From IMG/VR virus record IMGVR_UViG_3300025098_005131: a stretch of 64,000 nt of DNA. One strand, 5' to 3'. How positions within the stretch are numbered: the stretch's first letter is position 1; every line of letters begins with the position of its first letter. This stretch comes from a virus (taxonomy: Duplodnaviria; Caudoviricetes). A program made the position numbers and the translations under genes. The notes beneath the pieces were generated by a model that had not been told where the DNA came from, searched no databases, and was given only the letters and a program-made list of their open reading frames with translations. This document shows, in pieces, positions 28,505 through 30,232 of the stretch.

Positions 28505-30232
28505 CTATTCTCCGCACGGCGGAATTAAACATTCAGCATGAGGCAAATTTGAAATGATGGCATTTTCACAAGTCTCAGACACAGATAATTCTGGTGCCCA
28601 AGCCCAAGAGTTCATCATAATAAACCCAGCGTGTTGAGGAAAACCATTAAGGTTGTAAGTAATTATCTCTGATAGCTTGACATATCTGCTTGTCTGTCTA
28701 AAAAAAATACCGTATCTTCCACGAGGAATATAACCGCTATAACTAAATGTTGTAGAACTGCTACTTGAATTGACAACTGTTTGCGCAATACTCTCGCTAT
28801 TACCTTCAGTTACAACATTTCCGCTACTTAAGCTCTCAGACATGTTCCAGACTCTACCAGAAGACAACGAGGATGATGCAGAAATTGAGTTTGAATTAGA
28901 ACTTGATAAAACATATGCACCACTTAAAGTACTACTTCTAGAATCATTCTGTATGCTACCATATGTTCTGCCTGTCTGTAATGATCCACCTGTTGTATAC
29001 CCTCTATTTTCTGAGCTTGTTTCACTATTCGAAGAAGAATTAGATTCACCCCAGTCTCTAGATACACCAGCACTTACTTCAACTTTACCGCTAGCTTTTG
29101 CTAAAAAAGGCAATGAGCCTTCACCACTTACACCTACGGTTGTCGATCCATTAAGGCCTGTGTTTGTGTTTTGACTTTCTGCACTCCCCTGTGTCTGTGA
29201 ATTGGATTCGTCTAAAGACCAACTCCAGCTCTCTCCATCTGAAGTATTAAAGGAAAGATTGTTACTTTCACCTTCAGATCTTGTATTAGAATATGACTCA
29301 GACTGTGTTTCTGAAGAAGACATTGATGAAGAATTAATAGTACTTTTAGTTTCATTTACGGTAATACCTTCACCTGTTGTTTGTGATCGGCTTAAAGAAA
29401 AGCTATCACTCCAGCTTCTGTTAATATTTATTGATACACTATTTTGTCTAGTTTCAGACTCTGTTTCGGAATATTGTACATTGCTACCAACAGTTCCGGG
29501 AATACAACCGGTTACAGGAATAGGCTCATAGACTTCAGCCAACTCATATTTACCAAAATGCTTAACTTCAAGAGGTCTTACAACTTTAAAGGGTAATGAA
29601 GTTTCTACAAATTCATTTTCAGAGTTATAAGCTTTTATGTTGACATTAGCTATGTAAAATCCGATATCATCAGGAACTGCCTTTAAAAATACATTGTTTA
29701 ACCAATCTCTATCTGTTGGTGTAGAATAAATATTTTCTTCTTCTATAACTTCATAGGGAGTTGTTATTGTGTATACAAATCTAACGGGTCTTATTTTTAA
29801 CACACTTACATTAATTGTATTTAAAGTATTATGTATTACATTGCCTGACAACGTAGAACAATTCAAAGCGCCGCAGAAGCTTTCTATAACTAATGATGGC
29901 AATATTTGTATTGGTATATTTTGACTTGTTTCATCTGTCTCTATTAAAATACTATAATTTTCTAGACTTGATACTCTTTGATTTAAAAATCTGTTTATAA
30001 TAAAGTAATTTTTATAAAGAACTGGGTAATAAGATTCAACTTTTAGTTTATTTGAGTTTACTAAACTTACTAAATGTTTTTTAGACACATCTATTTCTTC
30101 AAACGAGTTTACTCTTAACACTTCCCCTGAAGTTATTTCTGGTTTTTCTAAGAAAAAACTATTGTTATTTTTATATTCTGACTTAGCACATGATATTAAT
30201 AGTGCAAAAATTATATAAATGTAATTGCGCAT
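28505..30232 (-). CDS. lipoprotein with aerolysin/ETX-MTX2-like, extremely long Ser/Thr-rich beta-hairpin
   Basis: lipobox LISC; amphipathic tip STTVGVSGEGSLPFLAKASGKVEVSAGVSRDWG flanked by two S/T-rich arms of about 120 aa; closes with IPRGRYGIFFRQ. Confidence 0.6.
   Translation of the reverse strand: MRNYIYIIFALLISCAKSEYKNNNSFFLEKPEITSGEVLRVNSFEEIDVSKKHLVSLVNSNKLKVESYYPVLYKNYFIINRFLNQRVSSLENYSILIETDETSQNIPIQILPSLVIESFCGALNCSTLSGNVIHNTLNTINVSVLKIRPVRFVYTITTPYEVIEEENIYSTPTDRDWLNNVFLKAVPDDIGFYIANVNIKAYNSENEFVETSLPFKVVRPLEVKHFGKYELAEVYEPIPVTGCIPGTVGSNVQYSETESETRQNSVSININRSWSDSFSLSRSQTTGEGITVNETKSTINSSSMSSSETQSESYSNTRSEGESNNLSFNTSDGESWSWSLDESNSQTQGSAESQNTNTGLNGSTTVGVSGEGSLPFLAKASGKVEVSAGVSRDWGESNSSSNSETSSENRGYTTGGSLQTGRTYGSIQNDSRSSTLSGAYVLSSSNSNSISASSSLSSGRVWNMSESLSSGNVVTEGNSESIAQTVVNSSSSSTTFSYSGYIPRGRYGIFFRQTSRYVKLSEIITYNLNGFPQHAGFIMMNSWAWAPELSVSETCENAIISNLPHAECLIPPCGE

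Follow-up and report, generated by a model that had tools for sequence, protein, structure and literature searches.

What would a phage do with a lipoprotein whose C-terminal half is interrupted by a very long Ser/Thr-rich insert? The question is raised by a gene on the minus strand (28505..30232; ATG start, 575 codons plus stop) of a 64,000-nucleotide stretch of the IMG/VR virus record IMGVR_UViG_3300025098_005131 (Duplodnaviria; Caudoviricetes), which we call the window; all parts of the gene discussed below lie on the same strand. It encodes an exported lipoprotein of an uncharacterized family. A preliminary description, made from the letters of the sequence, had seen in it an aerolysin-like lipoprotein with a symmetric beta-hairpin that might build a tube through the cell envelope. 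The open reading frame and all the motifs quoted there were found in the window protein, and their positions were confirmed. Our own answer, to which we give a probability of roughly 45%, is that this is a Sec-exported phage lipoprotein of the aerolysin-type superfamily whose pre-stem hairpin has been lengthened to ~120 residues per strand, and whose hairpins would join into a barrel.

The aerolysin-type module and its insertion hairpin

The module at the C-terminus encloses the insert from both sides. Its N-terminal half (29420..29572, residues 221-271) carries the conserved CIPG...YSE..SETRQ motif and the base of hairpin arm 1, drawn by AlphaFold2 as strands 221-234, 251-259 and 264-271. Its C-terminal half (28508..28792, residues 481-575) holds two 20-residue strands, the GxFYRQ motif, which is the most conserved one of the family, and a Cys-rich tail with nearly invariant C555, C568 and C573. 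AlphaFold2 was run on the whole window protein with a 120-sequence alignment, and residues 1-271 and 481-575 were mostly modelled with predicted local distance difference test (pLDDT) values >90. Fold searches with this full model were dominated by matches to its immunoglobulin (Ig)-like domains. The fold of the module was judged from a short-hairpin homolog, P0228 (residues 302-473), a choice that leaves out the Ig-like domains and the unmodelled insert.

P0228 and the window protein are homologous before as well as after the insert, with 45% identity (E 7e-10) on the N-terminal side and 30% identity over 77 residues (E 3e-13) on the C-terminal side, and the order of strands is identical in the two models. 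In the AlphaFold2 model of its module (pLDDT 83.8), long strands form a twisted antiparallel sheet, the insertion loop lies between strands of the core, and a helix is found at that loop. In an exhaustive VIA-align search the 18 best matches were all aerolysin-type pore-formers. Ranks 1-16 (Z 6.4-5.1) comprised BmALP, Mpp75Aa1, Sip, parasporin-2, 3kog (Z 6.1), epsilon toxin, the lysenin pore, LSL, the aerolysin prepore, Cry51, Clostridium perfringens enterotoxin, Cry23 and HA70; they were followed by an HA3 chain (Z 4.4) and pro-monalysin (Z 3.4), and beyond rank 18 Z was at most 3.3. A Foldseek search returned C. perfringens enterotoxin (E 8e-5). A family profile restricted to the module matched aerolysin-type PDB chains exclusively, namely LSL at 0.004, Cry51Aa1 at 0.009 and Dln1 at 0.015, with weaker matches to Cry51Aa2 (0.076) and parasporin-2 (0.33). 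The profile of the whole protein matched mainly such chains, the same ones ranking top, Dln1 ranging from 0.004 to 0.015 across profiles, and both profiles aligned the alternating loops of LSL and Dln1 onto the tip region of the hairpin. Since the fold matches of P0228, the homology across the insert and these weak but specific profile matches agree, the assignment of the C-terminal module to the aerolysin type is supported by the models at fold level, and to this extent the preliminary description was right.

The insert itself consists of arm 1 (29156..29419, residues 272-359), an amphipathic tip (29063..29155, residues 360-390) with its turn at L374-P375-F376, and arm 2 (28793..29062, residues 391-480), which pairs with arm 1 in a register of i+j ~750. 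The preliminary description had set wider limits, 29473 and 28739; these correspond to residues 254 and 498 and do leave 120 residues on either side of LPFLA. The tip it had quoted, STTVGVSGEGS-LPFLA-KASGKVEVSAGVSRDWG, was found at residues 363-395 (29146-29048), and the Ser/Thr-rich flanks are borne out by a Ser+Thr content of 36-46% per 50-residue block between residues 251 and 500, compared to 12-20% elsewhere. The Pro-containing sequence IPRGRYGIFFRQ is likewise present (residues 502-513), but does not close the hairpin as had been thought: in the AlphaFold2 model IPRGR is a turn between two strands of the cap, E493-501 and E507-526.

Comparison of arm lengths over the family bears directly on the hairpin. 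In an alignment of 120 family members, with arm 1 counted from the conserved Tyr254 up to the tip and arm 2 from there to Arg512, the arms came in pairs of 22/39, 26/43, 56/66, 66/80, 80/92, 88/102, 96/110, 106/120, 116/130, 120/134, 122/136 and 162/173 residues. Both arms thus lengthen together, several-fold, from ~22 to ~160 residues. A second measurement, in which the two anchors and the tip were located independently by small motif hidden Markov models (each E<0.01), gave 22 length classes from 69/79 to 132/143 with a Pearson r of 0.997; the arms differed by 10-11 residues in 16 of them. Exceptions to this lock-step are few, for example P0205, with an extra, partly Pro/Asp-rich loop in arm 2. 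When the tip was instead located as the most hydrophobic 15-mer, its position was noisy for single sequences and central in the class medians. A rule that arm lengths are always even, seen in the first alignment, failed in the second and was dropped. Individual insertions and deletions are paired as well. A deletion of 349-352 accompanies one of 399-402, six proteins have two extra residues after 299 together with two after 447, and in the 66/80 class 343-366 are missing along with 383-412, and 290-319 along with 423-447. Where the case is simple, adding the two positions of a pair gives 747-751. The short-hairpin relatives carry an ordinary amphipathic hairpin of membrane length at the same site.

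Covariation was calculated as average-product-corrected mutual information for 126 relatives aligned without gaps (effective number 37). Its mean peaked on the antidiagonal i+j=750, centered at Pro375, with z 4.6 against all antidiagonals; the signal reached its highest value (z 8.4) at a distance of 20-40 residues from the tip and stayed above zero in each bin as far as 100-125 residues. The strongest local center was residue 376, in the tip. Self-complementarity of small and non-small residues within each sequence did not fix the register of the arms, since any period-2 pattern fits many centers. Such a pattern runs in phase along both arms, unbroken from base to tip. At the odd positions of arm 1 and at their partners in arm 2, Ser, Thr, Gly or Ala occur in at least 90% of the 126 sequences, and this face continues into the polar face of the tip (S363, T365, G367, S369, E371 and S373 on one side of the turn, K379, S381, K383, E385 and S387 on the other). 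The even face of the tip is hydrophobic (L360, V366, V368, L374, F376, A378, A380, V384, V386, A388, V390) and constitutes the sole hydrophobic belt of the hairpin. Over the next 15-20 residues the even face is entirely polar and variable; farther out, charged residues are mixed with conserved aromatic and hydrophobic ones. The amphipathic alternation and the Ser/Thr-rich flanks typical of an insertion hairpin are therefore present in the window protein, in the column statistics of the relatives as in the profile alignments.

The arms are also under strong constraint. They contain no proline (0%, compared to 5.7% elsewhere in the protein), are free of insertions and deletions in the 126 relatives down to ~40% identity, and have a mean pairwise identity of 65% as opposed to 51% for the rest of the protein. 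Taken together, the lock-step lengths, paired indels, covariation and period-2 pattern strongly support, at the level of sequence comparison, that the insert is one long antiparallel hairpin with register i+j ~750. The symmetric hairpin with an amphipathic tip that the preliminary description had read into the Ser/Thr region is hence borne out.

The remainder of the protein fits an exported lipoprotein. The signal peptide and lipobox occupy residues 1-15 (30188..30232), with LISC at residues 12-15, as the preliminary description had it. C15 is at least 90% conserved and nearly invariant in the 120 family members; the strict lipobox pattern was matched by 69 of 123 members, and most have an N-terminal hydrophobic stretch followed by Cys. 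By this signal the mature lipoprotein would begin with a lipidated Cys15. The Ala at position +2 suggests sorting to the outer membrane, provided that the Lol rule of Escherichia coli applies in the host. Two beta-sandwiches follow, an Ig-like/FN3-like one at residues ~25-111 (29900..30160; pLDDT >90) and an Ig-like/PKD-like one at residues ~112-220 (29573..29899). They were assigned from the AlphaFold2 model and from structural matches spanning residues 23-111 and 25-220; the second sandwich aligned with PKD, FN3 and CBM sandwiches at VIA-align Z 8.4-9.6 and a root-mean-square deviation of 1.8-3 Å over 80-100 residues.

Relatives are numerous: one database yielded 236 (E<=1e-3), and a second one 235 as cluster representatives. 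Nearly all share a similar architecture, and all go by the database name 'hypothetical protein'. The existence of these relatives, the conservation of C15 and the conserved, indel-free arms show that the features described are more than chance or low-complexity noise. On its own, the window protein had no sequence match in Pfam, PHROG or the PDB; a Pfam scan at E<=10 gave just two unrelated sub-threshold matches, and ten distant homologs that were scanned had no Pfam match either. No significant match was found among the predicted viral structures of BFVD, and none by tblastn among the isolated phage genomes of INPHARED. Longer fused forms of the family were not found, which is weak evidence.

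From hairpin to a proposed barrel

How might such a hairpin act? By virtue of its signal peptide and lipobox the protein would be exported by Sec and lipidated in the infected cell. By analogy with the superfamily, protomers could then assemble into a ring whose hairpins together make up a beta-barrel, with the Ser/Thr/Gly/Ala face lining the lumen and the tip belt sitting in a bilayer. The axial rise in beta-barrels is roughly 2.3-2.8 Å per residue, and 100-120 residues per strand would give a stem of ~25-33 nm, comparable to the width of the periplasm. The tip would insert into one membrane, with the lipid anchor keeping the cap at the opposite one, so that the envelope of a diderm host would be perforated or bridged from the periplasm. 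In the simplest arrangement, a cap tethered at the outer membrane would reach the inner membrane. Depolarization of the inner membrane, timing or aid of lysis, exclusion of other phages and a conduit are candidate purposes for the phage. We consider an oligomeric barrel of ~25-33 nm reaching across the periplasm a reasonable proposal. The preliminary description had estimated 30-40 nm and a passage through the whole diderm envelope. The arithmetic of the length was about right, but the passage was not, since a single hydrophobic belt is compatible with a tether at one membrane and insertion into the other rather than with crossing of both.

Arms held at exactly one length among the phages, but graded among the bacterial relatives, fit a ruler-like role. 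One may go further and see in the family a natural series of 'molecular-ruler' beta-barrel nanotubes, from ~6 nm for arms of 22-26 residues to ~40 nm for arms of 160, all built on aerolysin-type rings. The phage member would be fixed at ~30 nm, and a Ser/Thr-lined tube would run from a cap tethered at one host membrane through the whole periplasm into the other; we regard this wider proposal as plausible but less likely than not.

Several observations speak against the barrel, or against the superfamily assignment on which it builds. The structural Z values to aerolysin-type folds are modest (5-6.4), and the window protein matched neither Aerolysin (PF01117) nor ETX_MTX2 (PF03318) of Pfam. AlphaFold2 left the insert (residues 272-481) unmodelled at pLDDT <50, and in place of the long hairpin it drew a local one at 326-340. 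Covariation along the antidiagonal was weak past ~40 residues from the tip (z 1.4-2.0 per bin), because the columns there hardly vary. There are also conserved outward residues far from the tip, on the even face: W274, I290, W336, W338, Y412, L436 and W462. Aromatic and hydrophobic side chains in these places fit poorly with a bare, solvent-exposed tube and could mean that the ribbon packs elsewhere. A complex prediction with four copies of residues 255-497 scored 0.00 with the partner's own fold uncertain, and weighs neither for nor against the barrel.

The explanation that survives best next to the barrel starts from these outward residues. The long hairpin would be real and would never become a barrel; it would fold into a beta-rich stalk or extra domain, a ribbon of two strands that packs against itself, the Ig domains or an adjacent protomer, and serve as a spacer or ruler that holds the hydrophobic tip at a set distance. 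It would suit an outward face on which hydrophobic and aromatic residues are conserved, and Gly positions fixed, over the whole length. The conserved DG..W.W motif, the hairpin hinted at by AlphaFold2 and weak local covariation centers near residues 301 and 276 point in the same direction. However, the place that the insert takes in this pore-former fold is precisely the insertion loop, and the uniform Ser/Thr/Gly/Ala face of the insert runs on into the polar side of the tip, as a lumen would. Covariation favors the long register and gives no clear support to a local hairpin at residue 333, and an isolated two-stranded ribbon of 30 nm would hardly be stable. We consider this explanation unlikely, though it deserves to be kept in mind.

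More improbable is a binding lipoprotein that makes no pore, with an aerolysin-type fold co-opted so that the flat Ser/Thr face binds polysaccharide, peptidoglycan or another surface. It draws on the Bacteroides protein BVU_4064, which has the same architecture, with lipobox, N-terminal beta-sandwich, C-terminal aerolysin-like domain and a helix at the insertion loop (PMC4387736). Its structure, 3kog, is among the top structural matches of the module, and the P0228 model, too, has a helix at the loop. Yet the tip of the phage protein keeps a strict amphipathic pattern of membrane length and a hydrophobic turn, the short-hairpin relatives have a classical insertion hairpin, and arms that lengthen in lock-step would be needless for a binding face. 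No match to PF12985 or PF12986 of Pfam was found either.

An ordinary aerolysin-type pore, with a barrel made from only ~35 tip residues and the Ser/Thr arms as flexible linkers, would account for the low AlphaFold2 confidence throughout the arms and for their richness in Ser, Thr, Gly and Asn. It does not account for arms that lack proline and indels, are more conserved than the folded domains, keep a strict period-2 pattern, and show paired indels and arm-to-arm covariation. Lock-step lengths, paired indels, covariation, pattern and constraint are five independent lines which make a disordered linker very unlikely, and we see little chance for this version of the pore. We give the least weight to a spanin-like lysis protein that is tethered at the outer membrane, reaches the inner one and fuses or disrupts both late in infection: the outer-membrane-type signal (LISC, Ala at +2; predicted sorting), a predicted reach comparable to the width of the periplasm and the phage origin of the gene would allow it, but the C-terminus is a Cys-rich polar tail and no transmembrane helix, 575 residues are far above the ~60-150 of known spanins, no endolysin or holin family matched within ~5 kb (where many neighbors lack an assigned function), the neighbors are chaperonin, sigma factor, exonuclease and nucleotide-metabolism genes, and the homologs in bacteria are chromosomal genes, once a tandem pair. 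Since no lysis genes were recognized adjacent to the gene and a C-terminal membrane helix is missing, the lytic role that the preliminary description had offered is without specific support.

Phage setting and neighboring genes

The lipoprotein gene is a conserved gene of an undescribed lineage of marine jumbo phages of ~240 kb and 31% guanine-plus-cytosine (GC). This assignment rests on viral contigs, a complete genome record and kept gene order. Relatives are carried on IMG/VR viral contigs of 211 and 240 kb; the larger of the two (239,550 bp) is bounded by direct terminal repeats, rated 100% complete by CheckV and equipped with a gene for a large terminase (TerL, E 1.8e-17); and a 38%-identical relative retains the same exonuclease-chaperonin-sigma block. 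The identical lipoprotein occurs on 16 contigs, some from Joint Genome Institute (JGI) metagenome samples. The window itself has a GC content of ~31% and contains replication genes of phage type (a DNA polymerase, phrog_405, an ATP-dependent ligase and an HNH endonuclease), a chaperonin, a sigma-70-like factor, a 5'-3' exonuclease and many large open reading frames that belong to no family. A 67%-identical relative, P0012, was deposited under a metagenome-assembled genome of a 'Candidatus Woesearchaeota archaeon'; as the family shows phage synteny, it is probably a phage contig mis-binned into the archaeal genome.

A search for homologs in Myxococcota and phages, proposed in the preliminary description, yielded close relatives in phages, but only distant ones (20-39% identity) in Myxococcota-like bacteria. 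The latter are lipoproteins of GC-rich bacteria, for which a protein atlas points to Myxococcota, and their loci look myxobacterial, with a Ser/Thr kinase with AAA_16/TPR and MopE/TSP_3 proteins. One bacterial relative used as query led to a single metagenome-assembled contig labelled 'uncultured proteobacterium'. With the gene in a 31% GC marine jumbo phage and only distant relatives in such bacteria, the idea of a toxin arming a predatory host found no support. In a midpoint-rooted FastTree tree of the non-hairpin columns, which is weakly resolved, the AT-rich phage sequences formed a monophyletic clade beside bacterial sequences with the same 120/134 arms, and paired changes of arm length recurred in several clades. 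A comparison of the bacterial loci revealed no conserved partner gene, and neither did one of bacterial with phage loci. One GC-rich bacterial contig (L006, 6100-9923) carries tandem paralogs of 631 and 640 residues that are 46% identical and both have long arms, which hints at a two-component or hetero-oligomeric use in bacteria.

A neighboring 317-residue protein (27118-28071, minus strand) has no Pfam match; its LLDGHHRW resembles by eye the DGHHR motif of the ParB/sulfiredoxin type, and in a divergent relative (L022) its homolog lies on the opposite side of the lipoprotein gene. A phage GroEL-type chaperonin (32837-34468, minus strand) adjoins the sigma-70-like factor (31873-32661), which is short, with regions 1.2, 2 and 3 matched and region 4 unmatched.

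Farther away, the phage carries a purine-interconversion cassette (10450-14695, minus strand). It consists of a fumarate-lyase-family protein, probably adenylosuccinate-lyase-like (10450-11613), an adenylosuccinate synthetase (11780-12976, Pfam E 1.9e-94) and a protein of the GMP reductase/IMPDH family (13634-14695), all on the minus strand. The synthetase also matches a PHROG that holds PurZ-type enzymes of 2-aminoadenine phages, and PurA and PurZ are alike possible. A UvdE UV-damage endonuclease (14753-15673), a protein with an Fe/Mn superoxide dismutase C-terminal domain (45643-46371) and a small EF-hand protein (9901-10407) are unusual auxiliary genes for a phage. Five open reading frames of 921-1537 residues (46913-51526, 40688-43804, 15537-18527, 23540-26485 and 60331-63096) have no Pfam match, and four of them no PHROG match either, in a scan that took in all but 23540-26485; virion proteins or RNA-polymerase-like proteins are candidate identities for them in this poorly described lineage. 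Between 15500 and 26500 the genes lie on the plus strand and both GC and AT skew are positive, inside a window of mostly minus-strand genes and negative skew; this block may be a separate transcription module or mark a replication-related switch. The Bacteroidota promoter motif TAnnTTTG was not enriched in the window, and no transfer RNA genes were found in it.

Comparison with known systems

If the barrel forms, its stem would be several times longer than that of any characterized pore-former, with a length tuned by paired insertions, and ideas on the reach of beta-pore-formers would change. Phages would then have an unrecognized route to act on the host envelope from within the periplasm, and length-graded natural protein nanotubes would be of interest for nanopore engineering. 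Should the whole nanotube series prove true, it would include by far the longest beta-barrel known, as a new phage-made perforator of, or conduit across, the periplasm. Even if no barrel forms, the family, with >230 sequence clusters and no Pfam entry, is a clean case of lock-step evolution of paired strands, and the lipoprotein marks a conserved gene of an undescribed marine jumbo-phage lineage. Our literature search turned up neither an account of an aerolysin-type protein with a long hairpin nor one of the present lipoprotein family.

Phage lipoproteins that act in the host envelope are known, namely spanins and lipoproteins for the exclusion of other phages (Rz1, T1 gp11, T5 Llp and Cor), and spanins bridge the periplasm. 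These proteins are much smaller, however, and lack a pore-former fold. Spanins moreover lie in lysis cassettes, and the unimolecular ones have a C-terminal membrane helix, whereas the lipoprotein described here shows neither.

Closer in architecture are BVU_4064 (3kog) and BF1687 (3g3l) of the DUF3869/DUF3870 type, Bacteroides lipoproteins with a lipobox, an N-terminal beta-sandwich and a C-terminal aerolysin-like domain, for which a surface or periplasmic binding role was proposed (PMC4387736). The phage protein has this succession of lipobox, sandwich and aerolysin-like domain in common with the BVU_4064 type, and the helix at the insertion loop of the soluble form recurs in the P0228 model. 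In contrast, neither Bacteroides protein has the long hairpin insert, and there is no sequence-family match between them and the phage protein.

For the stem itself, the anthrax protective antigen pore offers the nearest concept, a long-stemmed beta-barrel with a stem of about 10 nm. In both cases a cap would be held off the membrane on a long, narrow stem to which each protomer contributes one hairpin. The folds are unrelated, though, the stem proposed for the phage protein would be about three times longer, and there is no hint of cargo translocation.

The core fold is shared with the aerolysin-type pore-formers, such as LSL (1w3a), Dln1 (4zno), Cry51Aa1 (4pkm) and parasporin-2 (2ztb), and further with epsilon toxin (1uyj), C. 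perfringens enterotoxin and the lysenin pore (5gaq). Like these, the phage module has an amphipathic, Ser/Thr-flanked hairpin inserted between core strands, and the hydrophobic turn at its tip is reminiscent of the 'rivet' loop of aerolysin. Aerolysin-type toxins are secreted and soluble, whereas the phage protein is encoded by a virus and predicted to be lipid-anchored. Characterized hairpins of this type have arms of ~20-35 residues. Short members of the family, with 22-26 residues, fall within this range, and the arms of the phage lipoprotein, at ~120 residues, are roughly five times the usual length. The core fold is thus already known; what we rate as new is an aerolysin-type lipoprotein, in a jumbo phage, with an insertion hairpin that is ~five-fold elongated and controlled in its length.

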